DNA of 47,858 bases from an uncultured Rhizobiaceae group bacterium (GTDB lineage: Bacteria; Pseudomonadota; Alphaproteobacteria; Rhizobiales; Rhizobiaceae), in NCBI GenBank assembly GCA_938030595.1, contig CALHIB010000003.1, forward strand, positions 1-47,858. The letters are read 5' to 3'. This document shows, in pieces, positions 2,951 to 35,324 of the stretch. Positions within the stretch are counted from its first letter, which is position 1; each line of letters opens with the position of its first letter. A program made the position numbers and the translations under genes. Below the pieces are notes generated by a model. That model saw only the letters and a list, made by a program, of their open reading frames with translations, ran no database searches and was not told the origin of the DNA.

Positions 2951-3427
2951 ATGAATGCACCAGCACTATGTTGTGTTTCGGCACATCAAACAAACAATAG
3001 AAAGTCATTTAAACGGCATAGTAAAGTAAAAGGGAGCATGACACCAAATATTCATAGCTATGGTATAACATCATTGAACAAGCCTGGTGATAGATTATTG
3101 GCAACGTTTGTGAACCAAATGGTTGCTTCTGCGTATGAAATACCTTCGCAAAGACTATTAAAAGATGATCGCGGCACTGCCAAAGCAACACGAGCTAGGC
3201 AAATTTCAATATATTTAATGCACACTGGATTATCATTTTCTCTCTCAAAGATTTCCCGTATCTATAGAAAAGATCGCACAACAATAGGATATGCATGCCG
3301 TGTGGTTGAAGATTTGAGAGATACTCCAGCTTTCGATGATCGGTTGATTGAGTTAGAAGAAACAATAAACACAGTCTTGATATTAGCTGCATATATCCCT
3401 GAAAATGGGGGGCAAAATGCAAAATAA
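2951..3427 (+). CDS. Small DnaA-domain-IV-like helix-turn-helix protein with no AAA+ module; candidate GafY-like GTA activator subunit
   Basis: 158 aa. The C-terminal half, RARQISIYLMHTGLSFSLSKISRIYRKDRTTIGYACRVVEDLRD, matches the DnaA C-terminal DNA-binding signature. Strong RBS. Overlaps the next ORF. Confidence 0.75.
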   Translation: MNAPALCCVSAHQTNNRKSFKRHSKVKGSMTPNIHSYGITSLNKPGDRLLATFVNQMVASAYEIPSQRLLKDDRGTAKATRARQISIYLMHTGLSFSLSKISRIYRKDRTTIGYACRVVEDLRDTPAFDDRLIELEETINTVLILAAYIPENGGQNAK

Positions 3428-4238
3428 AGCCAAGCAGGAAGAGCTGCGACATTCACTTAGATTGCTAAAATTACTCTCTAAACGTTTCAAGACAGGCCTT
3501 GAATATCGGATGGAAGAAGACGTTGCTATAATTGTTTTAAATGAAAATCAATATCGCTTTAGTTATGACCTTATAAGGAAACTATGTGACAAAAAATACT
3601 TGGTTACATTCCCTAATGTAATAAAAATTACTGATTCAGGTACGGCTTATTTAAAGAAACAGTTAAATCCGGATTCGCTTCTTGCAAGTGCAGATAATCA
3701 CATTGCGGAAACGACTATCATTCATGATCGTCAATATCATCAAGTTCAGATGAACATGAATGAATCGCCTTTGCTGAGGTTATTTTCACGAAAAACAAAA
3801 AACGGTACAAGTTATATCACCATGGAAGAGTTTCAAGCCGGCGAGCGTTTGCGTCAGGACTTTGAGCGCGGACAATTACAACCAAAGATTACTGCAAGTT
3901 TGCAAGGCTCGATGGGTTCTGCAGGCAGGGCGGGTAGAAGTAGTGTCGAGGAGATTACAGATTTTGCACTGGACGCAAGAAAGCGTGTTGGTAAGGCAAT
4001 AGAGAACCTTGGCCCTGAATTATCAGGAGTTACTCTGGATATATGTTGTTTCTTGAAAGGTTTGGAGAGTGTAGAGCGTGAAAGAGCATGGCCACCTCGC
4101 TCAGCAAAACTGATGCTCAAAACTGCTCTTGCATTGCTGGCCAGACATTATGGAATTTCCGGATATGAAAACCAGCGTACGAATAAACACACTTCATGGG
4201 GAGGAGCTGATTATCGACCAACCATAAACCGTACCTAA
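3405..4238 (+). CDS. Conserved alphaproteobacterial protein (DUF6456-like C-terminal region); candidate GafZ-like partner
   Basis: 277 aa. The more likely start is the ATG at 3417, which follows a GGGGGG RBS. Motifs: FQAGERLRQDFERGQLQPKITASL and WPPRSAKLMLKTALALLARHYG. Translationally coupled to 2951..3427. Confidence 0.7.
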   Translation: MGGKMQNKAKQEELRHSLRLLKLLSKRFKTGLEYRMEEDVAIIVLNENQYRFSYDLIRKLCDKKYLVTFPNVIKITDSGTAYLKKQLNPDSLLASADNHIAETTIIHDRQYHQVQMNMNESPLLRLFSRKTKNGTSYITMEEFQAGERLRQDFERGQLQPKITASLQGSMGSAGRAGRSSVEEITDFALDARKRVGKAIENLGPELSGVTLDICCFLKGLESVERERAWPPRSAKLMLKTALALLARHYGISGYENQRTNKHTSWGGADYRPTINRT

Positions 4239-6611: not shown

Positions 6612-7400
6612 ATGCAACTTATAAAACAAACATCATCATTATTATTACGAGCAGTGATAGAAAAGCCAGGAAGTGCAGCTGGGCTCGTAGTTTTTGGTTT
6701 GGGTTTTGCCTTGGTAGCGGGCAATGCACTTTATTCCCAAGAAGGTCAACATCAAGATCCATTATGGTCAACTGCTAAGGAAACTGAGAGACTTTCAGAA
6801 AACTATGAGCCAGAAATCGCAAAAGTTAGTCGCAAGAATACTATAACCAGAAGTGTTCTTACACAGCGCATTAGTTTGAAAAATGTGCCAGTACCAACTA
6901 TTAGCCCTGTAAGAAGCAAATCTGTTGCCGCGCATTCTTCCCTGGTGAGAGATGTCCAGTCTGTTCTAGCAGATATTGGTTTCTACACAGGCAAGGTCGA
7001 CGGCATTTACGGCAGCGGAACTAAAGCCGCAATTATGAAATTCCAAGAGCGTTCTGGTATCATTCCGAACGGTGAAGCAAGTTATGGTTTGTTGAGCAAC
7101 TTGAAATCAGTTCAGGCTGTAACAGGCACGCAACAAACTGCAAGCGTTCAACCCAAACAAACGGGTGCAAGTGCCTTGCCGCAAGTATTGGTCTTTGATG
7201 CGGAAACGGTTGCTCGTATTCAAACCGGACTAAAAGAAAACTTTGGTGATGAAAACATCAGTATTGATGGTGTTATGGGTAGCCAAACGAAGAATGCCAT
7301 TAAGCGCTTTCAACAACGTTTCAAGTTGCCTGTATCAGGCGATCTGGATAATAAGACACTTGAAAAGATGTTATCTGTAGGCATATTAGCGAGCATCTAA
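6612..7400 (+). CDS. Membrane-anchored protein with two peptidoglycan-binding (PG_binding_1) repeats
   Basis: N-terminal TM segment AAGLVVFGLGFALVAGNALY. Two repeats of the type GKVDGIYGSGTKAAIMKFQERSGIIPNG and IDGVMGSQTKNAIKRFQQRFKLPVSG. Confidence 0.8.
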   Translation: MQLIKQTSSLLLRAVIEKPGSAAGLVVFGLGFALVAGNALYSQEGQHQDPLWSTAKETERLSENYEPEIAKVSRKNTITRSVLTQRISLKNVPVPTISPVRSKSVAAHSSLVRDVQSVLADIGFYTGKVDGIYGSGTKAAIMKFQERSGIIPNGEASYGLLSNLKSVQAVTGTQQTASVQPKQTGASALPQVLVFDAETVARIQTGLKENFGDENISIDGVMGSQTKNAIKRFQQRFKLPVSGDLDNKTLEKMLSVGILASI

Positions 7401-13378: not shown

Positions 13379-13999
13379 ATGTTAGGAAGATGCTGCGTGT
13401 CTATTGAGCTTTCGCCTTTACCTGCAATTGGTTTTGCCACTGAACCACTCCCAACCCGTGATGGGTTTCGTTTTACACTTACGACGTTACTCTCAACATT
13501 GTTAAATGATGCAGAGCAAATGTTTGGCCCACGTGACATGTCTTATACGCCAGTGGGAATTGAGTTTTACGGAAATAGACCACAAGTCTGGTATCCCGGT
13601 ACCAATAAACATATATCAATAATCTTAACAGATAGTGCGCGTGAAGACCCAGCGCAGGCCATTTTTCAATTAGCGCATGAAGTGATGCACCTACTATCGC
13701 CAACAGGCGGAGCAAATGCCCCTGTAATCGAAGAAGGGTTAAGCGCCTTATTCCAACAACGTGCCAACGAAGTTTATGATCTAGATCTACATCTTGTAGC
13801 AGTGCCTTATGTCAAGGCAACAGAGCTGGCAAATATGCTCTTGAAAGGTGAGCCTAGTATTATAAAGCGTTTGAGAAAAATTGAGCCTGCCTTTCATAAA
13901 TGGACACCACGATTTTTAGTTTCAGAGGCAAGGATATCTCGCGCTTTGGCAGAAGAACTATGTGAGCCATTTATAGATTTTGAAACTCGAGAAAAATAA
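13379..13999 (+). CDS. Orphan HEXXH zinc-metallopeptidase-like protein
   Basis: QLAHEVMHLLSP, with EEGLS 13-14 residues downstream of the motif's second His as a possible third ligand. The start is ambiguous: the first 47 codons overlap an antisense ORF, and alternative starts are TTG 13499 and ATG 13520. Confidence 0.55.
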   Translation: MLGRCCVSIELSPLPAIGFATEPLPTRDGFRFTLTTLLSTLLNDAEQMFGPRDMSYTPVGIEFYGNRPQVWYPGTNKHISIILTDSAREDPAQAIFQLAHEVMHLLSPTGGANAPVIEEGLSALFQQRANEVYDLDLHLVAVPYVKATELANMLLKGEPSIIKRLRKIEPAFHKWTPRFLVSEARISRALAEELCEPFIDFETREK

Positions 14000-14023
14000 T
14001 TTCAAAATAATAGGAATTTATTC

Positions 14024-14052
14024 TTGACACCGAAACGGTGTTGGGGTACATT
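14024..14052 (+). promoter_or_regulatory. Candidate sigma70-type promoter of the GTA cluster
   Basis: TTGACA (14024-14029), 17-nt spacer, TACATT (14047-14052). The spacer contains the inverted repeat CACCGaaaCGGTG. Confidence 0.5.
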
Positions 14053-14123: not shown

Positions 14124-14157
14124 AGCTGCCTTTTCTATAGGTGGCTTTTTTGCGTTT
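14124..14157 (+). terminator. Candidate intrinsic terminator in the GTA leader, upstream of g1
   Basis: 7-bp stem AGCUGCC/GGUGGCU (two G-U pairs) with a 9-nt loop, followed by TTTTTTGCGTTT. Lies about 40 nt upstream of the g1 start. Confidence 0.45.
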
Positions 14158-14192: not shown

Positions 14193-14492
14193 TTGTCAGA
14201 TGAACCAAGTCAACTGGAAGAAATCGCAATTAAATTTCGTAACAAATTACTTGATAAGGTTTCTAAATTTGAAGACGTGGAAGCGGATGAAGCAATCTCT
14301 TCTGAGCAGCAATTAAAATCGTATATGGGATTTTTCAAGTTACTTCAAAGTTTGGAAGAAATGATAAAACGGGTGCAACAAGAACGTGAAAAAAAGTCTG
14401 ACAGGGGAGTGGATATATTGGAATTCCGCCGAGAGCTTGAAGAACAAATTGCCAAACTTGTCGACGCAAAAACTCAGGCAATTATTCCTTGA
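14193..14492 (+). CDS. g1-position small acidic coiled-coil protein (possible GTA small terminase-like protein)
   Basis: 99 aa with a TTG start preceded by GGGGAA. The assignment rests on its position directly upstream of TerL; no motif was recognised. Confidence 0.5.
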   Translation: MSDEPSQLEEIAIKFRNKLLDKVSKFEDVEADEAISSEQQLKSYMGFFKLLQSLEEMIKRVQQEREKKSDRGVDILEFRRELEEQIAKLVDAKTQAIIP

Positions 14493-24389: not shown

Positions 24390-27300
24390 ATGGCAACAGT
24401 TGTATTACAGACAGTAGGCGCGGCCATTGGAGGCGCAATTGCCGGGCCATTTGGTGCGATATTAGGTCGAGCAGCAGGTGCTGCGGCAGGTTATGCAATT
24501 GATCAAACCTACCTTACAAAAGATCAGGTAATCCAGGGCCCGCGCCTTGAAAGTTCAAGAATCCTTTCTTCTGTTGAAGGTGCCCCAATACCAAAAATAT
24601 ACGGTAGAAACCGCATTTCCGGTCAGGTGATATGGGCGACAAGGTTTGAGGAAGTTGCAAATACACAAAAATCTGGCGGCAAAGGAACTGGTAGTTCTTC
24701 CAGTGCCACAAGTTTTTCTTACTTTGCAAATTTTGCCATTGGCTTATGTGAAGGTCCAATATCGGGGGTTCGAAGAATATGGGCTGATGGCCAAGAGTTG
24801 GATTTAACAAAAATCGAATTTCGTTTTTACAATGGAAACGAAGAACAAGAGCCTGACCCATTGATTGAGGCAAAGCAGGGGATAGGCAATACTCCAGCGT
24901 TTCGTGGAACAGCATATGTAGTCTTTGAAAGCCTGCCATTGGAAAACTACGGAAACAGAATTCCACAACTGTCTTTTGAAGTTATAAGAGTAATTGGCAA
25001 GCTTGAAACAGCAATTAAATCCATCACGGTAATACCAGGCTCGACGGAATTCGGATACGATCCGGAACTTGTTACAAGCGGTGGTGAAAACGAAGTTTAC
25101 AACGCGCATAATCGGCATGTTTCAATCGCTAGTTCCAATTGGAAAGCTTCAATTGATGAGTTGCAAATGGTATGTCCAAATTTGGAATCCGTTTCGCTTG
25201 TGGTAGCGTGGTTTGGTACAGATATAAGAGCTGCCGAGTGTATAATACAGCCAGGTGTAACAACCCAAATAGGCATTAAATGGCGGGTCAATAATCTGCG
25301 TCGTCATGAAGCTCATTTAATCTCACAGGTAGATGACCGACCTGCCTTTGGTGGAACACCTGATGATGATGCCGTATTGCGCGCCATTGCTGATCTAAAA
25401 GCGCGTGGCTTAAAAGTTGTCCTTTATCCGTTTATTATGATGGATATTCCAAACAATAATTCATTACCCGACCTTTCAGGAACAGGTGAACAACCAGCCT
25501 ATCCTTGGCGCGGCGAAATATCTTGTTTCCCTAAGCCTGGTGTTGAAAATACAGCTGATAAAACTGCTTCTGCAAGAGCTCAGCTAGAAACATTCAAGGA
25601 GCAGTATAATAAATTTATACTACATTATGCCAATCTTTGCGATCAGGCTGGAGGGGTCGATGGCTTTCTCATCGGTTCGGAATTAAGAGGCCTCTCAAGA
25701 GTAAGAGACAATCTGGGCAAGTTTCCATTTGTAGAAACTTTAATTGAGCTTGCCAGTCAGTGTAGAGCCATTCTTGGGAACTCTACGACCATTACATATG
25801 GAGCAGATTGGACAGAGTATTTCGGTTATCAACCGCAAGATGGCAGTGGCGATGTTTTATTCAATCTTGATGATCTTTGGGCATCGCCAGCGATAGATGT
25901 GATTGGCATAGATAATTATATGCCATTGTCTGATTGGCGAGATGAAGGCGACCCACAGAACAATCTTGCAACTTCAAATCACAATATTGATTATCTGAAA
26001 TCCAACATAGCACGCGAAGAAGGTTATGATTGGTATTATCAAAGTGAAGAAGATCGCTTAAACGGATCACGCACAGAAATAACCGATGGGCAAGGTGAAC
26101 CTTGGATATACCGTTACAAGGATATTCATTCCTGGTGGTCCAACTCGCATTATCATAGAAAGAATGGCATTCGCGAGACATCTCCAACCAATTGGGTGCC
26201 TAACTCCAAACCGATATTCTTTACAGAATTAGGATGTCCCGCAGTTGATAAAGGCACAAACCAACCAAATGTTTTCCATGACCCGAAATCAGCGCAATCA
26301 GCTTTGCCATATTTTTCTTCGGGTGGCCGCGATGATTTAATCCAAAGGAGATATTTGGAAGCCAATTATGAATTTTGGAGTGATCCTCAAAACAATCCGG
26401 TATCCAGTATTTATCAAGGGAGTATGGTTGATGTAGAAAACATGTCACCTTGGACTTGGGATGCGAGGCCGTTTCCATGGTTCCCATTGCAACTGGATGT
26501 TTGGAGTGATGGTGATAATTGGCATAAAGGCCACTGGCTGACAGGCCGACTTGGTGGAGCTTCTTTGCAGGATTTGATTGAAACCATCTTGGGTGATTTT
26601 GGATACATAAACTTCGAAGTTAAACTGGATGGTATTTTGGATGGGTATATTATTCCAAATCAGGCATCTGCTCGTTCAGCAATAGAGCCACTTTTAAGAT
26701 TGTATAATATTCAGGTGTTTGAAGAAAATGGCGTACTAATAATCAAGGATCGTCATTATGCAGATACGATTGAAATAAACGCTGAGCAATTGGTTCAAGA
26801 GGAAGGCGAGTTTGAAAAGACAACAAAACGCGATAATGAATTGGAACTTCCTGTAGAGGCGATCGTAACGCACGGTTCAATTTTTGGCGATTATGAAGAA
26901 ACTGCTACGAAGTCACGTCGACTGGAAGGAGGAAGCGATCGCCAAATAAGTTTGCAGGCACCTATTACAATGCCGGAAACATCAGCAAGAAAGCTGGCAG
27001 ACAAGAACCTTAGAGAAAGTTGGCTCGGGCGGCAGGAATGCAATGTTTCTTTATCCATCAGTGAAATGGAAGTAACGCCAGGAGACATTATAAAATTCTC
27101 GAACTCTCTTGGAGAAAAATGGCAGGTAAATAGTGTTGAGAGAAATCTGGCACAAAAGCTGTCCCTATCTTCAGTTGTTGATTTTCCAATTTTATCAGAA
27201 AATGAAACAACAACTTCTTATGCAAGTATTGTCCCGAGTTTTTATGGCAAACCAAATGTTGTATTTTTGGACTTACCGCTTTTAAATTCCAAAGACCAAA

Positions 27301-28190
27301 GCAAAGCGATTTCACATGTCATGATTTCTGCCTCACCTTGGGCTGGAAACTACAATATTTTTTCTTCATTTGAGGAAGACGGATATACAAGGCGCGCAAC
27401 AGTTTCATCACGTGCTACGATGGGTAATTCAAGTAATATTATTTCCAAAGGACCAATTGGGCGGTGGGACTATGAAAATTACCTGATTGTATCATTATTC
27501 ACAGGTAGTTTTGAAAGTGTTTCAAGACTTGGAATACTTAACGGAGCGAATGTCATTGCACTTGAATGCAATGATGGCAGCTATGAACTCGTTCAATTCT
27601 CTCATGCAGAATTATTATCTGATGGAAAGTGGAAGCTATCCAAGCTTCTAAGAGCACAACTTGGTACAGATCCGGAAATGAATGCAGGTTCATTTGAAGG
27701 TGCAAACGTAATTTTGCTTAATGAGGCAGTATTTCCTCTGGAGTTAAACGATAGCGAAATAGGAATTTCTCAGAATTGGCGAGTAGGGCCAGTAAATGAG
27801 AATAATTCATCGGCCAGTTATTCCAAGCTTGTACACACAAATAATGTACGCAGCAGATTACCACTAAGTCCTGTCCATTTGCGATCTGAAAAACTTGGAG
27901 CTGGCTATGAGTTCTCTTGGGTCAGGCGAGGTCGTATTAATGCAGATGTCTGGGAAGGTAGTGAAATTCCTTTGGATGCGGCAAGCGAGAAATATCAGGT
28001 AACCATATTAGATATGCAGGGTGAAGTGAAACGTGAATACAGTACGTTCACACCGTCTACTTTATATACTGAGCAAATGTTGACGACTGATCTTGGAGCC
28101 ATGGCAACTCATTTTACTGTTCAAGTTGCTCAAATAAATAATAACGGGTTAGTAGGGTCCCCCTCAAAACTTCCAATACAAATAACTTAA
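24390..28190 (+). CDS. GTA host-specificity / baseplate megaprotein (g15), with a TIM-barrel-like glycoside-hydrolase-like region
   Basis: 1266 aa. Gly/Ala-rich N-terminus, then IYGRNRISGQVIWATRF...YFANFAIGLCEGPISGVRRIWADG. The large central domain and C-terminal phage-tail-like domain follow the RcGTA g15 pattern. Confidence 0.93.
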   Translation: MATVVLQTVGAAIGGAIAGPFGAILGRAAGAAAGYAIDQTYLTKDQVIQGPRLESSRILSSVEGAPIPKIYGRNRISGQVIWATRFEEVANTQKSGGKGTGSSSSATSFSYFANFAIGLCEGPISGVRRIWADGQELDLTKIEFRFYNGNEEQEPDPLIEAKQGIGNTPAFRGTAYVVFESLPLENYGNRIPQLSFEVIRVIGKLETAIKSITVIPGSTEFGYDPELVTSGGENEVYNAHNRHVSIASSNWKASIDELQMVCPNLESVSLVVAWFGTDIRAAECIIQPGVTTQIGIKWRVNNLRRHEAHLISQVDDRPAFGGTPDDDAVLRAIADLKARGLKVVLYPFIMMDIPNNNSLPDLSGTGEQPAYPWRGEISCFPKPGVENTADKTASARAQLETFKEQYNKFILHYANLCDQAGGVDGFLIGSELRGLSRVRDNLGKFPFVETLIELASQCRAILGNSTTITYGADWTEYFGYQPQDGSGDVLFNLDDLWASPAIDVIGIDNYMPLSDWRDEGDPQNNLATSNHNIDYLKSNIAREEGYDWYYQSEEDRLNGSRTEITDGQGEPWIYRYKDIHSWWSNSHYHRKNGIRETSPTNWVPNSKPIFFTELGCPAVDKGTNQPNVFHDPKSAQSALPYFSSGGRDDLIQRRYLEANYEFWSDPQNNPVSSIYQGSMVDVENMSPWTWDARPFPWFPLQLDVWSDGDNWHKGHWLTGRLGGASLQDLIETILGDFGYINFEVKLDGILDGYIIPNQASARSAIEPLLRLYNIQVFEENGVLIIKDRHYADTIEINAEQLVQEEGEFEKTTKRDNELELPVEAIVTHGSIFGDYEETATKSRRLEGGSDRQISLQAPITMPETSARKLADKNLRESWLGRQECNVSLSISEMEVTPGDIIKFSNSLGEKWQVNSVERNLAQKLSLSSVVDFPILSENETTTSYASIVPSFYGKPNVVFLDLPLLNSKDQSKAISHVMISASPWAGNYNIFSSFEEDGYTRRATVSSRATMGNSSNIISKGPIGRWDYENYLIVSLFTGSFESVSRLGILNGANVIALECNDGSYELVQFSHAELLSDGKWKLSKLLRAQLGTDPEMNAGSFEGANVILLNEAVFPLELNDSEIGISQNWRVGPVNENNSSASYSKLVHTNNVRSRLPLSPVHLRSEKLGAGYEFSWVRRGRINADVWEGSEIPLDAASEKYQVTILDMQGEVKREYSTFTPSTLYTEQMLTTDLGAMATHFTVQVAQINNNGLVGSPSKLPIQIT

Positions 28191-28208: not shown

Positions 28209-28415
28209 ATGGTTGAAGAAAAGAACTGGTATGAATCGAAGACAATATGGGGCGCATTACTTGCTGTTGGCGCATCGTTTATGGGCACGCTAGGTATCAG
28301 CGTTGATACAGTTGCGCAAACTGACTTGGCTGATGCGCTGATTCAATTGATAGGTGCAATTGGTGCTATGATTGCAATATATGGAAGACTTTCTGCAACA
28401 GATATTATTTCATAG
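28209..28415 (+). CDS. Two-TM small membrane protein, holin-like
   Basis: 68 aa. TM1 TIWGALLAVGASFMGTLGI, TM2 LADALIQLIGAIGAMIAIYG. AAGGAA RBS. Starts 18 nt after the g15 stop. Confidence 0.55.
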   Translation: MVEEKNWYESKTIWGALLAVGASFMGTLGISVDTVAQTDLADALIQLIGAIGAMIAIYGRLSATDIIS

Positions 28416-28419
28416 TAGA

Positions 28420-28641
28420 ATGTTTGGGTTTTTAAATTTGTTATTCGCATTTTTTTCTCAGGTCATAAGAATTATAGAAAACTACAGAACCGAGAAAAAT
28501 AGAAAACTAGACCAGAAACGAAATGCAAAGGCTGATGCCTATGATCACCTTCAAAAAGCGCTCAGGGCTAGGAATACTGCTCGCAGGTCTAATGCCGCTG
28601 ATAAGCTCATGTCAGACGATGGCTACCAGCGAAAGCAATGA
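28420..28641 (+). CDS. N-terminally anchored, highly charged small protein (i-spanin-like)
   Basis: 73 aa from the ATG at 28420, 4 nt after the holin-like stop. The track's 28372 start overlaps the previous gene. MFGFLNLLFAFFSQVIRII is followed by a Lys/Arg/Asp-rich helical tail ending DDGYQRKQ. Confidence 0.45.
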   Translation: MFGFLNLLFAFFSQVIRIIENYRTEKNRKLDQKRNAKADAYDHLQKALRARNTARRSNAADKLMSDDGYQRKQ

Positions 28642-28759
28642 AGCAAATTGGGTTTGTTTAGCGTTTGCACCCATTACATGGTCTAAAAAGGACACGAAAG
28701 AAAGCTTGAAGCAGATAAAACAACACAATGCGGTGTGGGCCGCATTGTGTAACGTATAA
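28541..28759 (+). CDS. Small lipoprotein in an overlapping reading frame (o-spanin-like)
   Basis: MITFKKRSGLGILLAGLMPLISSC has a lipobox (ISS|C). The mature part is about 47 aa with two further Cys. It overlaps the previous ORF by 101 nt in the +1 frame. Alternative ATGs at 28523 and 28535. Confidence 0.5.
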   Translation: MITFKKRSGLGILLAGLMPLISSCQTMATSESNEANWVCLAFAPITWSKKDTKESLKQIKQHNAVWAALCNV

Positions 28760-28812
28760 ATTTTCAAGAAATATTCATTTTTGGTTCAGAAGGAGCATGT
28801 TATACAGTTTCC

Positions 28813-29052
28813 ATGAAATTACTAATATCAATACCATTGGCCATATTTTCTGTTGTATTATTGTCTACATCTGCCCATGCAGATGCGTGCAGCAATGCCG
28901 CGCGTGGCATGGTTAATAGTGATCCGAAAGCGACATTGTTATCTGTGAAGTCAGTTAAAAATGGTAGTGGTAAAGTGACATGCGAAGCGCGAATTAAAAT
29001 TTCATCTGGAAGTCAGCCGCCACGTATCGTTGTCAAAAAATTTAAACCATAA
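28813..29052 (+). CDS. Small secreted protein upstream of the response regulator (FeuN-like position)
   Basis: 79 aa. Signal peptide MKLLISIPLAIFSVVLLSTSAHA, two Cys in the mature part. Sits 19 nt upstream of the RR gene. Confidence 0.55.
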   Translation: MKLLISIPLAIFSVVLLSTSAHADACSNAARGMVNSDPKATLLSVKSVKNGSGKVTCEARIKISSGSQPPRIVVKKFKP

Positions 29053-29071: not shown

Positions 29072-29734
29072 GTGCGAATATTAATTGTCGAAGATGACTT
29101 GGAATTAAATCGTCAATTGGAAGAAGCTTGCCTCGAAGCAGGTTATGTTGTCGATAAAGCGCACGATGGTGAAGAAGGGCATTTCTTAGGAGACACAGAA
29201 CCTTATGATGCCGTAATTTTAGACATTGGCTTGCCTGTCATGGATGGCATTACAATCTTAGAACAATGGCGCAAAGCTGAACGCAAAATGCCAGTTCTAA
29301 TGTTAACGGCCAGAGATCGATGGAGTGATAAAGTTTCTGGAATTGATGCAGGAGCAGATGATTACCTAGCAAAACCATTTCACATTGAAGAAGTGTTAGC
29401 GCGTCTTCGTGCATTGATCCGTCGTTCCAACGGACATGCTTCCTCAGAACTGAGTTGTGGTGATATTGTTTTGGACACCAGAACATCAAAAGTTACCTAC
29501 AAAGACAAGCCAGTTAAACTTACATCACATGAGCTTAGATTGCTGTCGTATCTTTTGCATCATCCAGGCGAAATTATTTCCAGAACGGAATTAACAGAGC
29601 ATCTGTATGACCAAGACTTTGACAAAGATTCGAACACGATCGAAGTTTTTGTCGGGCGATTACGCAAAAAGTTGAATACTGATTTTGTAGAAACAGTACG
29701 CGGTCTAGGATACAGACTGCAAGAAGCCGAATGA
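29072..29734 (+). CDS. OmpR-family response regulator (FeuP-like by synteny with cycHJKL)
   Basis: GTG start. MRILIVEDD...DAVILDIGLPVMDG...ARDRWSDKVSGIDAGADDYLAKPF, plus a winged-helix C-terminus ...VRGLGYRL. Confidence 0.93.
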   Translation: MRILIVEDDLELNRQLEEACLEAGYVVDKAHDGEEGHFLGDTEPYDAVILDIGLPVMDGITILEQWRKAERKMPVLMLTARDRWSDKVSGIDAGADDYLAKPFHIEEVLARLRALIRRSNGHASSELSCGDIVLDTRTSKVTYKDKPVKLTSHELRLLSYLLHHPGEIISRTELTEHLYDQDFDKDSNTIEVFVGRLRKKLNTDFVETVRGLGYRLQEAE

Positions 29735-31119
29735 ATTCATCACTCCTAGATCGTATTAGTTTTTTGCCAAACACACTTGCGGCGCGTTTGTTTATATTAT
29801 CCTCGCTAGCGGCAATTTTGGGTGTCTTAATCGTAGCATTTGTTATTTTACAAGAATATAGACAAAATGCTGAAGCGCGCTTGAATGAAGTTCTTATAGC
29901 AAATGTTTTTAATTTGATGGGAACATTTGAAGTTGATCAAAACGGAAAACTCATGGGCTTACCCGACCTTGGGGATTCGCGTTACAATTTATTTGATTCT
30001 GGATATTATTGGTCAGTACAAAAAATATCAGATGAGAAATCACGCATAGCCAGTATCTCTCTAGCAGATCAAAAAATTATAATTCCACCAACTGCCGAGC
30101 TGGATCAAACTTTTCAACGCAGTTTCGAAATGGAAGATAAAATAGGTCAAATGCTTCAGGGGCTAGAAGCGCAAGTGTTTCTTGGGGAAGGCGATGAACT
30201 TTACAGTTTTCGCATTACTGCTAACAAAAGTTCTTTGAATGAAGAGATTACAGGATTTTTGTGGCGATTGGCATCCATTCTCTCAATCTTTGCATTTTCG
30301 ATGGTTCTGGCAACTTATTTGCTTGTTCGCTTAGGTTTAAAACCAATATCTAGAGCTGTGGAAATGCTTGGTAAGGTAAGAACAGGTGAAGCTTCAAGAA
30401 TTGATGGGCATTATCCTGACGAGATTGCGCCATTAATTGCTCAGACAAACGCTCTGATTGAATCAAATAATACAATTGTTGAACGTGCCAGAACTCAAGT
30501 AGGCAATCTGGCTCATTCCTTAAAGACACCATTAGCTGTCATGCAAAATGAGCTGCCAAAATTATCAAAAGAAAAGCAACCGATTTTCAAAGAGCAAGTC
30601 GATACAATGCGCAACCAAGTGCAAGTTTATCTTGATCGCGCGCGTATTTCAGCACGAAGCTCAACATCGATAGCAAATACTCCACTTTTTCCCGTGCTGG
30701 AAAAGCTTTCAAATGTGGTGTCCAAACTCAACCCAGCAACTGATATTGATAGTGATTTTGACGATGAAGGATTGATTTTTGAAGGTGAAGAACACGACCT
30801 GCAAGAAATTTTTGGAAACCTGATTGAGAATGCAGCCAAATATGCAAAAACGGCCATGAAAATCAGTGCAGGCTTGTCTAAGGGCAGGTTGGAAATAACG
30901 GTTGAAGATGATGGTTCCGGCATGTCTGCCCAAGATATAAAAAAAGCAGAAAAACGTGGAGGTCGCGTCGATGAGGGAAAGGTTGGCTGGGGACTTGGTC
31001 TGTCGATCGTAAGAGACATCGTCGATGAATATGATGGAAGTTTCAAACTCTCAAAATCCCCGATGGGTGGATTAAAAGCTGTTGTGCTCCTTCCAGGTAG
31101 AAAAGAGAAAAGCCATTAA
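29731..31119 (+). CDS. Membrane sensor histidine kinase (FeuQ-like by synteny)
   Basis: Two TM segments flank a periplasmic domain of about 150 aa. HAMP domain, H-box NLAHSLKTPLAV, N-box FGNLIENAAKYA, G-boxes DDGSGM and GWGLGLSIV. Shares a 4-nt overlap with the RR gene. Confidence 0.9.
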   Translation: MNSSLLDRISFLPNTLAARLFILSSLAAILGVLIVAFVILQEYRQNAEARLNEVLIANVFNLMGTFEVDQNGKLMGLPDLGDSRYNLFDSGYYWSVQKISDEKSRIASISLADQKIIIPPTAELDQTFQRSFEMEDKIGQMLQGLEAQVFLGEGDELYSFRITANKSSLNEEITGFLWRLASILSIFAFSMVLATYLLVRLGLKPISRAVEMLGKVRTGEASRIDGHYPDEIAPLIAQTNALIESNNTIVERARTQVGNLAHSLKTPLAVMQNELPKLSKEKQPIFKEQVDTMRNQVQVYLDRARISARSSTSIANTPLFPVLEKLSNVVSKLNPATDIDSDFDDEGLIFEGEEHDLQEIFGNLIENAAKYAKTAMKISAGLSKGRLEITVEDDGSGMSAQDIKKAEKRGGRVDEGKVGWGLGLSIVRDIVDEYDGSFKLSKSPMGGLKAVVLLPGRKEKSH

Positions 31120-32899: not shown

Positions 32900-33348
32900 C
32901 ACGTAAACAAAAACGCTTTGCCGGAATTGGTATTATTGGCGCAGTCATTGGACTTGCCGTACTTTTGGTAAGTATTGCCCTTAGAGATGAAATTGTATTC
33001 TTTTATGATCCCACTGAAGTGGTTAGTGGAACGAAAGTATCTCCCGGGCAAAATTTCAGGATAGGCGGGTTGGTCGAAGAGGGTAGTGTTGTTAAGCAGG
33101 ATACTAAAATTTCATTTGTTGTAACGGATGGCGAAAATAGTGTGCCAATCAGTTTCGAAGGAATTTTACCTGACTTGTTTCGCGAAGGCCAAGGCATCAT
33201 CGCTGAAGGTGCAATGGATACACAGGGACAGTTTATTGCGCAAAATATTTTGGCCAAACATGATGAGAATTATATTCCAAAAGAACTAGAAGACGTTATG
33301 AAAGATAAAGATGTCTGGAAGGGCAAGAAAAGCGAGCCAAACTCATGA
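32896..33348 (+). CDS. ccmE: Cytochrome c maturation haem chaperone CcmE (CycJ)
   Basis: N-terminal anchor, FRIGGLVEEGSV, and AKHDENYIPKE with the haem-binding His. Confidence 0.95.
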   Translation: MTRKQKRFAGIGIIGAVIGLAVLLVSIALRDEIVFFYDPTEVVSGTKVSPGQNFRIGGLVEEGSVVKQDTKISFVVTDGENSVPISFEGILPDLFREGQGIIAEGAMDTQGQFIAQNILAKHDENYIPKELEDVMKDKDVWKGKKSEPNS

Positions 33349-35324
33349 TTGCCGAACTTGGACATTATGCACTTATATTGGCACTTGCTCTCACATTAGT
33401 GCAGTCAGTTATTCCGTTTTGGGGTGCACGCAAAGGTGATGAAGTTTTGATGGCCTCTGGAACGACAACCGCCATTGCAGGTTTTCTTGCAATATCTCTG
33501 TCGTTTGCAGCGCTGACTTATGCATATGTTACTTCTGATTTTTCACTTACTAATGTTTGGCAGAACTCGCATTCTGCAAAGCCGATGCTTTATAAAGTAA
33601 CCGGCGTATGGGGAAATCATGAAGGTTCAATGTTGCTTTGGGTTTTGATCCTCGCTCTGTTTTCTGCATTACTTGCGGCATTTGCAAGGAACTTGCCTTC
33701 GAGACTGAAAGCGGATGTCTTAGCCGTTCAAGGCTGGGTAACACTTGCCTTCTTGTTGTTTATATTATTGACCTCAAATCCGTTTGATCGCCTTCCTCAA
33801 ACGCCTGTTGAAGGACGCGATTTAAATCCTATTCTTCAAGACATTGGACTGGCAATTCATCCGCCGCTTCTTTATGTGGGTTACGTTGGATTTTCCCTGA
33901 CATTTTCCTTTGCAGTTGCGGCGATGATCTCTGGGCGCATTGATGGTGCCTGGGCAAGATTTGTAAGGCCTTGGGCGCTTGTTGCTTGGGTTTTCCTGAC
34001 GGCTGGAATAGCGATGGGCTCTTATTGGGCATACTACGAGCTGGGTTGGGGCGGCTGGTGGTTCTGGGATCCGGTAGAAAACGCGTCCTTTATGCCATGG
34101 CTTGTCGGAACAGCACTGATACATTCTGCTCTGGTAATGGAAAAACGTGATGCGCTTAAGATTTGGACTATTCTTTTGGCGCTTCTGACATTTTCTCTAT
34201 CATTGCTGGGAACCTTTATTGTCCGCTCAGGCGTTCTTACATCAGTGCATAGCTTTGCATCTGATCCGGCGCGTGGCGTTTTCATATTGATGATCCTGTT
34301 GATTTTTATTGGTGGTTCCCTAACACTTTTTGCAATCCGCGCGAATGTTCTTCAGCAAGGCGGTTTATTCCAACCCATATCGCGGGAAGGAGCGCTGGTT
34401 TTTAATAACCTTTTCCTAACCGTTTCCTGTGCAACGGTAATTCTTGGAACTTTATATCCTCTGTTCCTGGAAGCTTTGGATGGTTCAAAAATATCTGTAG
34501 GCCCACCTTATTTTAATCTGACTTTTGGTCCGCTTATGATCCCATTACTATTGGTCATTCCTCTTGGGCCTTTAATGTCATGGAAGCGCGCTGATTTATT
34601 GGCTGTGTTGCAGAGGCTATATTTTATTGCAGGTGTATCATTGCTATCTGTGATTCTAGCACTTGCCTTTACGCAAGACAGTCCAGTTTTGGCCTCTCTT
34701 GCTATTGGCTTGGGTGTTTGGGTCATGTTGGGCAGCATGGCTGAGCTATTTCAACGCTCAGGATTGCCAAAAGCAGATTTGAAAACGGCTTTCGCACGTT
34801 TATCAGGATTGCCTCGATCTACTTGGGGGACAGCTTTTGCACATTTTGGTGTTGGTTTGATGGTTTTAGGCGTAGTTGGCGCAACTGCGTTCAGCGAAGA
34901 AAAAGGTATTTCAGCTCTTAAAGGCGATACAATTGAAATTGCTGGCTTTACACTTACACATGCAGGAACAAGACAAGAGCAGGGGCCTAATTATATTCAG
35001 GACTCACTTTTGGTATCTGTCAGTCGCGGTGGTGTAGAAGAATTGAAACTAACACCGGCCAAACGTTTTTATACTGGTCACGGAACTGCAACGACAGAAG
35101 CATCCATTAAGACGTATTGGTTCTCGCAGCTTTATGTATCGGTTGGAGATACAGATGAAGAAGGACGCACAGTTTTGCGTGCCTGGTGGAAGTCGCAAGT
35201 CTTGTTTGTATGGCTTGGGCCAATTTTGATGGCTTTCGGTGGTTGCCTGTCGTTAACCGATAGGCGGTTACGTGTTGGTGCACCTAAAACTTCAAAAGTA
35301 AGACGTGAGCTTTCCAATGCGTAA
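33345..35324 (+). CDS. ccmF: Cytochrome c haem lyase subunit CcmF (CycK)
   Basis: 659 aa polytopic protein with the WGGWWFWDPVENASFMPW tryptophan-rich motif. Confidence 0.95.
   Translation: MIAELGHYALILALALTLVQSVIPFWGARKGDEVLMASGTTTAIAGFLAISLSFAALTYAYVTSDFSLTNVWQNSHSAKPMLYKVTGVWGNHEGSMLLWVLILALFSALLAAFARNLPSRLKADVLAVQGWVTLAFLLFILLTSNPFDRLPQTPVEGRDLNPILQDIGLAIHPPLLYVGYVGFSLTFSFAVAAMISGRIDGAWARFVRPWALVAWVFLTAGIAMGSYWAYYELGWGGWWFWDPVENASFMPWLVGTALIHSALVMEKRDALKIWTILLALLTFSLSLLGTFIVRSGVLTSVHSFASDPARGVFILMILLIFIGGSLTLFAIRANVLQQGGLFQPISREGALVFNNLFLTVSCATVILGTLYPLFLEALDGSKISVGPPYFNLTFGPLMIPLLLVIPLGPLMSWKRADLLAVLQRLYFIAGVSLLSVILALAFTQDSPVLASLAIGLGVWVMLGSMAELFQRSGLPKADLKTAFARLSGLPRSTWGTAFAHFGVGLMVLGVVGATAFSEEKGISALKGDTIEIAGFTLTHAGTRQEQGPNYIQDSLLVSVSRGGVEELKLTPAKRFYTGHGTATTEASIKTYWFSQLYVSVGDTDEEGRTVLRAWWKSQVLFVWLGPILMAFGGCLSLTDRRLRVGAPKTSKVRRELSNA

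Follow-up and report, generated by a model that had tools for sequence, protein, structure and literature searches.

We analysed a stretch of 47,858 nt of DNA from an uncultured Rhizobiaceae group bacterium (contig CALHIB010000003.1, hereafter the window, always taken at its full length), which carries a head-tail gene cluster of the type of the Rhodobacter capsulatus gene transfer agent (GTA; RcGTA for that of R. capsulatus) and, immediately after g15, the last structural gene of this cluster, a trio of small open reading frames (ORFs) at positions 28209-28759. We consider it probable that the trio, placed 3′-terminally in a domesticated operon of the RcGTA type, is the remnant of a cassette of phage lysis genes, and that it most likely serves the membrane steps of GTA release. 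Precisely, the gene order of the trio and its +1 overlap are those of phage cassettes encoding a holin, an inner-membrane spanin subunit (i-spanin) and the spanin subunit of the outer membrane (o-spanin). Judged by its sequence, the trio is a phage-derived module of the holin-spanin type joined to an RcGTA-type cluster, for which a role in GTA release is a likely candidate function. The genes concerned are the following:

24390 to 28190, forward strand: g15 (megatron or host-specificity protein), last structural gene of the RcGTA-type cluster and anchor of the module, recognised with Pfam.
28209 to 28415, forward strand: ORF1, 68 amino acids (aa), holin-like, with two transmembrane helices, recognised by PHROG match and synteny.
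28420 to 28641, forward strand: ORF2, 73 aa, i-spanin-like candidate, recognised by its architecture.
28541 to 28759, forward strand: ORF3, 72 aa, o-spanin-like outer-membrane lipoprotein, recognised by its match to PHROG 1275.

An earlier annotation made from the letters of this DNA (the sequence-only reading) had placed three co-oriented genes here, the last of them encoding a lipoprotein of about 72 aa, and its coordinates were confirmed: ORF1 starts 18 nt after the g15 stop codon, with AAGGA 8-12 nt 5′ of its ATG, ORF2 follows after a gap of 4 nt, and ORF3, in the +1 frame, has 101 nt in common with ORF2. Three in-frame ATG codons are available to ORF3 (28523, 28535 and 28541), and the start at 28541, with AAGG about 10 nt upstream, gives the product of 72 aa. 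The head-tail cluster of the window was found complete and collinear from g2 to g15 by Pfam and PHROGs. Pfam recognised the terminase, the portal, DUF6107, the protease, the capsid, g6-g10, g12, g13, the g14 NlpC/P60 peptidase and g15 (domains GTA_TIM at 3.5e-137, Phage-tail_3 and Rcc01698_C), and the g11 tape measure was recognised via PHROGs. No integrase or replication genes lie with the cluster, a feature by which RcGTA-type clusters are told, and its flanks (regulator/kinase and ccm genes) recur in distant genomes.

The matches of ORF1 assign it to a phage holin family. It matched phrog_34682 (holin) at 2.1e-9, and among 30 diverse relatives the same family was matched by 23, holin family 4712 by 12 and holin family 297 by 7, the names of PHROGs being annotations and not experiments. 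There was no Pfam match at E <= 1 and no NCBIfam family. The initial search returned 93 relatives, nearly all of exactly 68 aa, and a profile search brought the family to at least 2,357 clusters, including Rhizobium, Neorhizobium (two named 'Holin' by UniRef), Salaquimonas and 'Nitratireductor' metagenome-assembled genomes. The family signature is K-x-W-[YFW]-x-SKTIWG ... A-[IVL]-[YLI]-G-R, in which the K-x-W-x-x-SKTIWG motif and the G-R inside a near-invariant AIYGR are invariant. Hydropathy peaks at residues 12-32 and 40-60, and AlphaFold, run with an alignment of 37 sequences, gave a helical hairpin with helices at 11-27 and 34-62 (pLDDT 85.5), for which an N-in/C-in topology with an acidic periplasmic loop is likely. 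Foldseek returned no match for this model at E <= 0.001, as is expected of a plain helical hairpin, and profile searches of the PDB gave chance hits only.

In phages and prophages, the relatives of ORF1 lie 3′ of endolysins of different types (Peptidase_M15_3, Phage_lysozyme, VanY/M15_4 or GH108). They are followed by a helical protein of 49-71 aa, hydrophobic or amphipathic at its start and charged in its tail, and a lipoprotein gene overlaps the 3′ end of the gene of this short protein. The swapping of endolysin types beside one and the same membrane protein is typical of holins. The earlier proposal that ORF1 is a holin-like protein with two transmembrane helices is thus supported by the PHROG holin families, by the hairpin model and by the phage relatives beside endolysins. 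ORF1 resembles class II (two-helix) holins, such as the S21 pinholin of phage 21, in size (about 68-71 aa), in its two helices, the first of which is rich in Gly, Ala and Ser, and in the small-residue repeats of its second helix; unlike S21, it has no dual start, and its tail is not basic in the GTA-linked subfamily.

ORF3 carries the signal of a lipoprotein, with KKR in the n-region ahead of a hydrophobic core, the lipobox I-S-S-C (predicted cleavage between Ser and Cys) and Gln, not Asp, at position +2, and its mature part of 49 aa has two further conserved Cys. Across 13 relatives the lipobox Cys is invariant, position -1 is [GAS] and Asp never occurs at +2. ORF3 matched phrog_1275 (Rz-like spanin) at 7e-9, and since 13 out of 13 aligned members of its family matched this PHROG (best 9e-19), we assign it to a described phage o-spanin family. 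Pfam and NCBIfam held no family for it, and a search of protein databases returned no match at all, not even the window's own product, because gene callers skip the overlapped frame. In Alteromonas phage R7M, a tblastn search against phages matched a lipoprotein ORF of the lysis cassette that is overlapped and carries no annotation, and in Proteus phage Myduc it matched the annotated putative o-spanin. We then built a hidden Markov model (HMM) from the GTA-linked copies and ran it on six-frame translations, in which it matched 14 intact GTA-linked loci (loci are designated by numbers with the prefix L), the frameshifted copy of L093, R7M (5e-20) and Myduc (4e-8). The invariant residues of the joint alignment are C24 (lipid attachment), C39, P44, S48, T52, H62, N63 and C70. 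In this way the o-spanin-like nature proposed earlier for ORF3 gained a family, PHROG 1275, and an alignment at invariant positions with an annotated putative phage o-spanin. A single-sequence AlphaFold model of ORF3 was too poor for use (pLDDT 55).

ORF2 was assigned as the i-spanin candidate by its architecture only. Its N-terminal segment (residues 2-20) is weakly hydrophobic and its helical tail is basic, with 16 K+R, 8 D+E and no Cys, and the protein is kept in position and length (71-89 aa) across 11 aligned loci, with the motifs A-x-Y-x-x-L-x-K-A-x-x-A-R and, at the C-terminus, D-x-[YF]-[RK]-R. The assignment is supported by the +1 overlap with the o-spanin gene, by the conservation of its C-terminus, the end at which the subunits of a spanin contact each other, and by the pattern of 0 + 2 Cys (0 in ORF2 and 2 in mature ORF3), which was the commonest class among 528 surveyed spanin systems (PMC6139136). 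In one high-GC relative (L012, 3204-3440) a stop codon interrupts the ORF2 frame after the hydrophobic start and before the conserved tail, with ORF3 intact, and this may be either a sequencing error or a loss of the partner gene.

The closest described counterparts of the ORF2/ORF3 pair are in phages. The putative two-component spanin of Myduc (CPT_Myduc_033/034) has a lipoprotein of the same family as ORF3, PHROG 1275, and the gp21/lipoprotein pair of R7M (vB_AcoS-R7M) is likewise reached by the o-spanin HMM; the lipoproteins of the three systems have invariant Cys, Pro, His and Asn positions in common. Short partners are found there too (82 aa in Myduc; gp21, 76 aa, in R7M), with the lipoprotein gene overlapping the 3′ end of the partner gene. 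Unlike the trio, these pairs reside in phage genomes, their holins fall outside the ORF1 family and their partners are not detectably homologous to ORF2. The R7M cassette runs in the order holin, GH108 lysozyme, two small genes, gp21, lipoprotein. The record of this phage leaves the o-spanin-type ORF unannotated (L002, 2501-2740), and just 5′ of the i-spanin-like gp21 it has a 90-aa protein with a signal peptide or membrane segment (2106-2378), so that the R7M lysis cassette is larger than annotated.

With the prototypes Rz/Rz1 of lambda, PseT.3/PseT.2 of T4 and LysB/LysC of P2, the ORF2/ORF3 pair shares an arrangement of +1 overlapping genes, in which ORF2 would be the inner-membrane subunit and ORF3 is the predicted outer-membrane lipoprotein. 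T4 also has the 0 + 2 pattern of periplasmic Cys (PMC6139136), and a C-terminal helix is predicted in ORF3 as in the T4 o-spanin, in a low-confidence model. Differently from these likenesses of layout, no sequence similarity to ORF2 or ORF3 was found in the lambda, T4 and P2 prototypes.

The trio was regarded by the sequence-only reading as the release module, or part of it, attached to the GTA operon, and the spacing agrees with this: ORF1 starts 12-36 nt after the g15 stop in nearly all of 53 measured loci, and no terminator-like site was found between g15 and ORF1 in the window. Altogether, ORF1 was directly 3′ of g15 in about 125 loci (about 55 of 80 metagenome loci, 70 of 80 IMG/VR loci, plus genome loci), including the cultured Rhizobium metallidurans and Salaquimonas pukyongi; the scan of genome contigs with g15 gave a single locus. 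The 80 IMG/VR entries with the ORF1 family (L097-L176) are catalogued as viral contigs. Of these, 70 are RcGTA-type clusters of about 14-17 kb from bacterial genomes, with predicted ends a few hundred bases 3′ of the holin gene, that is, GTAs rather than viruses.

We built a neighbour-joining tree from the C-terminus of g15, on which the spanin pair was confined to one coherent group (the window, L001, L004-L006, L012, L055, L092 from Salaquimonas, L094 and L095) and the Rhizobium-like group had ORF1 only; two further IMG/VR clusters carried the pair. The +1 overlap of ORF2 and ORF3 was also seen in L001, L092, L094, L095 and L096 and in the phage relatives. As to whether the trio follows g15 in relatives, a point raised by the sequence-only reading, the answer is affirmative for ORF1 but holds for the spanin pair in one clade only. 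The predicted holin gene is widespread in RcGTA-type clusters of Rhizobium-related bacteria, and it seems that the parts retained from an ancestral set of prophage lysis genes differ from lineage to lineage.

The ratio of nonsynonymous to synonymous substitution rates (dN/dS) was 0.03-0.2 for ORF1, 0.2-0.65 for ORF2 and 0.2-0.44 for ORF3, values that are rough, given that dS was saturated (dS > 1) and that ORF2 and ORF3 partly overlap. At this saturated dS all three ORFs were open and kept their conserved motifs, in agreement with the conservation expected of real genes. We consider that two overlapping frames, both open and motif-bearing across such divergence, are a stronger argument than dN/dS.

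Lysis genes of GTAs are described for other bacteria. In R. capsulatus, lysis depends on the endolysin rcc00555 and the holin rcc00556, which are unlinked to the head-tail cluster (PMC5721377, PMC13236601). As in the window, phage-type lysis genes there go with an RcGTA-type particle; unlike in the trio, an endolysin is present. The rcc00556 holin is of the type with three transmembrane helices (Pfam PF11351), in contrast with ORF1 and its lack of a Pfam match. A spanin for the R. capsulatus GTA was not described in the literature searched. In six large RcGTA-like clusters a homologue of the rcc00555 endolysin follows the rcc00171 homologue at the 3′ end (PMC5721377), prophage segments of Methylobacterium nodulans end with a lysis gene (PMC11409702), and Agrobacterium and Rhizobium clusters have a lysozyme between terminase and portal (PMC11409702). 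What these papers deal with are hydrolases, unlike the holin/spanin trio, and the literature searched made no mention of g15 being directly followed by a holin gene, alone or together with spanin genes. Brachyspira VSH-1, which belongs to an unrelated GTA lineage, has its lysis genes inside the cluster. The GTA of Caulobacter crescentus has neither holin nor endolysin and is released via LypABC, a CARD-NLR-like system (PMC13236601). LypABC and the VSH-1 lysis genes are alternative solutions to the release of particles by lysis of the producer cell.

If the trio works in release, the steps would be the following. It would be transcribed by read-through from the GTA promoter, and ORF1 would accumulate in the inner membrane and open or depolarise it at a set time. 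A wall hydrolase would then destroy the peptidoglycan; this enzyme would be encoded elsewhere in the genome or would possibly be the g14 NlpC/P60 peptidase or the TIM-barrel region of g15. Finally, a complex of ORF2 in the inner membrane and the outer-membrane lipoprotein ORF3 would break the outer membrane and let the particles escape.

Several observations weigh against this reading. A Pfam scan of the window ORFs of at least 90 aa (CcmF, 33345-35324, and nested and antisense ORFs being excluded) found no endolysin-type catalytic domain, as the sequence-only reading had already stated for canonical endolysins. The predicted cytoplasmic tail of ORF1 is non-basic in this clade, with the GTA-linked form GRLSATDIIS of net charge about 0, unlike the basic tails of the phage relatives, e.g. 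GR[IV]KA.[DK]K. Since most Rhizobium-like clusters have ORF1 without spanins, the spanin step must be dispensable or replaced there. The anchor of ORF2 is marginal, with a Kyte-Doolittle 17-residue mean of 1.73, as compared with 1.2-2.3 in relatives (1.2-1.5 in L001 and L094), 1.26 in R7M gp21, 2.2 in Myduc and 2.9 in lambda Rz; hence it is much less hydrophobic than the lambda anchor. The presumed periplasmic part of ORF2, a tail of about 50 residues, is short for reaching across the periplasm, against full lengths of 117 aa in T4 PseT.3 and 153 aa in Rz, and its very basic character also speaks against an i-spanin. By sequence comparison ORF2 is without detectable homology to described i-spanins. 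Precisely, neither Pfam nor NCBIfam has a family for it, none of the 11 relatives matched a PHROG, tblastn gave no match in phages, and the hhalign probabilities with R7M gp21 and the Myduc i-spanin were low and not significant (7% and 2%). The earlier naming of ORF2 as an i-spanin candidate therefore keeps its overlap architecture but lacks homology and a firm anchor; and its length, which had been called unusual, is indeed short but no oddity of this genome, as partner proteins in phage cassettes of this type have 49-82 aa.

These properties of ORF2 would also fit an arrangement in which ORF1 is a holin, ORF3 a lysis lipoprotein of the outer membrane and ORF2 not an i-spanin, being instead an antiholin-like regulator of the holin, peripheral or facing the cytoplasm, with outer-membrane disruption unlike that of Rz/Rz1. 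The N-terminal segment is amphipathic or marginal in several relatives, the 16 K+R of the tail favour the cytoplasmic side, and homology to i-spanins is lacking. We nevertheless hold this arrangement to be unlikely. In fact, two-component spanins are told by a lipoprotein gene that overlaps in the +1 frame, an overlap found again in the phage relatives with lipoproteins of unrelated families; the extreme C-terminus D-x-[YF]-[RK]-R is conserved, as expected of the end in contact with an o-spanin; lambda Rz is also basic just after its anchor; and the Myduc partner of an o-spanin of the same family has a clear anchor.

The cassette could also be a fossil of the ancestral prophage, with release depending on genes not linked to the cluster, as is the case for R. 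capsulatus or Caulobacter. Signs of loss are present: the spanin pair is gone in the whole Rhizobium-like clade and in L010, which also has a split g15, ORF3 is frameshifted in L093, ORF2 evolves fast, as its dN/dS indicates, and in both studied systems the release genes are unlinked (PMC5721377, PMC13236601). The L093 frameshift may itself be an error, since the assembly is from long reads. Against decay, ORF1 is intact at about 63-72 aa throughout and under strong purifying selection, even where g15 is only about 40% identical; the eight invariant residues and the lipobox of ORF3 are retained in 14 loci at saturated dS; and a non-functional, membrane-damaging gene on an expressed operon should decay fast. 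We regard the fossil explanation as quite improbable.

A further point against a role in release comes from two genomes in which the structural genes are missing. In L096 (640-2060) the terminase N-terminus is fused in frame with g15, of which only the last ~90 residues are left; every structural gene is gone, and ORF1, ORF2 and ORF3 are intact. The closest relative is L093 (28-2080), where remnants of terminase-portal and of g15 (110 aa) lie 5′ of intact ORF1 and ORF2, and the GTA structural genes were probably deleted. As the trio thus survives, wholly or in part, the deletion of the structural genes in two genomes, its dependence on the GTA is not proven. These two cases and L010 fit either recent decay or a role outliving the GTA. 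The large deletions of L096 and L093 are independent, and both spared the last ~90-110 codons of g15 together with the lysis genes.

The alternative to be weighed here is that the trio was co-opted for a GTA-independent job, for example non-lytic export of proteins or vesicles of the holin/hydrolase/spanin type, or an envelope function with the FeuPQ-like system located downstream. It bears on the 3′ boundary of the module, where we found the following elements:

28723 to 28750, forward strand: perfect inverted repeat of 11 bp in the last ORF3 codons (HNAVWAALC).
28763 to 28789, forward strand: direct repeats TTCA-N7-TTCA-N7-TTCA (core TTCATTTTTGGTTCAG), a boundary element outside the module.
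28813 to 29052, forward strand: ORF4, a small secreted protein of 79 aa, FeuN-like by position, belonging to the downstream regulator/kinase unit (29072-31119).

The trio outlasts the structural genes in L096 and partly in L093, it always adjoins a two-component operon of envelope-stress type, and no endolysin was seen in the window ORFs scanned, all of which would suit a GTA-independent job. On the other side, the repeat TTCA-N7-TTCA (consensus core TTCAT-N5-[GA]TTCAG) was found in 53 of 54 related loci to separate the lysis gene or genes from the response regulator, upstream of ORF4 and of the two-component genes; being 3′ of the trio, this regulator-type repeat cannot drive its transcription. 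Furthermore, the distance of the trio to ORF4 is variable, as against a distance to g15 of 12-36 nt in nearly all measured loci; the ORF1 family is otherwise found in phage lysis cassettes; and the in-frame terminase-g15 fusion of L096 leaves the trio under the GTA promoter and may be recent. We consider a GTA-independent job very improbable, and envelope co-regulation with the downstream two-component system, which the sequence-only reading had named as a competing function, is accordingly not favoured. That the trio is part of the downstream two-component operon was considered and rejected, as the conserved repeat lies after the trio.

The repeat has the form expected, as a prediction, of a site for an OmpR/PhoB-family regulator, and probably serves a FeuNPQ-like operon for its autoregulation. 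Its core TTCATTTTTGGTTCAG has one exact match in the window, and in high-GC relatives the repeat reads as a recurrent 'FICHS' string in spurious ORFs. With its own conserved repeat, the downstream two-component unit has a separate control region. ORF4 is directly 5′ of the regulator in all loci, including those without the spanin pair; its position makes it a candidate FeuN (PMC12486126). The hairpin at 28723-28750 may be the transcript end of the GTA/lysis unit, or it may be a by-product of the conserved o-spanin peptide HNAVW-ALC; L094 carries a comparable hairpin and L001 a weaker one, and the high-GC relatives have none. Downstream, the small secreted protein is followed by an OmpR-family regulator, a PhoQ-like kinase and a glycine-zipper protein, and further on by the ccmI, E, F and H genes, an α/β-hydrolase–OsmC protein and DegP.

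Some other features of the window were recorded. The protein at 6612-7400 (262 aa) was considered as an endolysin and rejected, because its PHROG 'endolysin' matches are to peptidoglycan-binding repeats only, with no catalytic domain; it has two PG_binding_1 repeats, lies directly 3′ of a histidine kinase and is the sole wall-binding protein near the cluster. About 10 kb 5′ of the GTA cluster, a MucR/Ros regulator (1938-2390) is followed by two adjacent, slightly overlapping genes (2951-3427 and 3405-4238), one with a DnaA-C-type helix-turn-helix (HTH) domain and the other with DUF6456. This pair resembles a split GafA-type GTA activator, as in GafY/GafZ of Caulobacter. Two ORFs 5′ of the terminase, 13379-13999 (206 aa) and 14193-14492 (99 aa), had no Pfam or PHROG family; the second occupies the g1 position, and terminator-like hairpins are located between the two (14022-14046 and 14124-14146). 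Minus-strand ORFs across the trio region were rejected as genes, being of at most 53 aa with no conservation seen.

The exit of GTA particles from Gram-negative producers is known for two species only, by unrelated systems, and an outer-membrane step has so far been identified for no RcGTA-type GTA. The locus supplies concrete and conserved candidates, with a predicted holin gene joined to g15 in well over a hundred genomes, and one member of the clade with the spanin pair, Salaquimonas pukyongi, is in culture and completely sequenced (CP019044.1), which makes the question directly testable. It also indicates that standard gene callers miss the overlapped lipoprotein gene, and with it comes a class of spanin partners of very small size (49-89 aa), which would set limits to models of membrane bridging and fusion by spanins. 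In a wider and more tentative view, which we hold possible rather than probable, the RcGTA-type GTAs of Rhizobium-related bacteria (Hyphomicrobiales) would own a release device encoded in their cluster, made of a holin in most lineages plus a miniature spanin in one clade, without a classical endolysin gene. If this were true, no system for disrupting the outer membrane would have been tied to an RcGTA-type GTA before it, and it would add a third way of release to the two of R. capsulatus (an unlinked pair of holin and endolysin) and Caulobacter (LypABC), and the wall enzyme would be either an unlinked one or the wall-degrading tail proteins of the particle itself (g14/g15). The trio is, in any case, a testable candidate for particle exit in Rhizobium-related bacteria.

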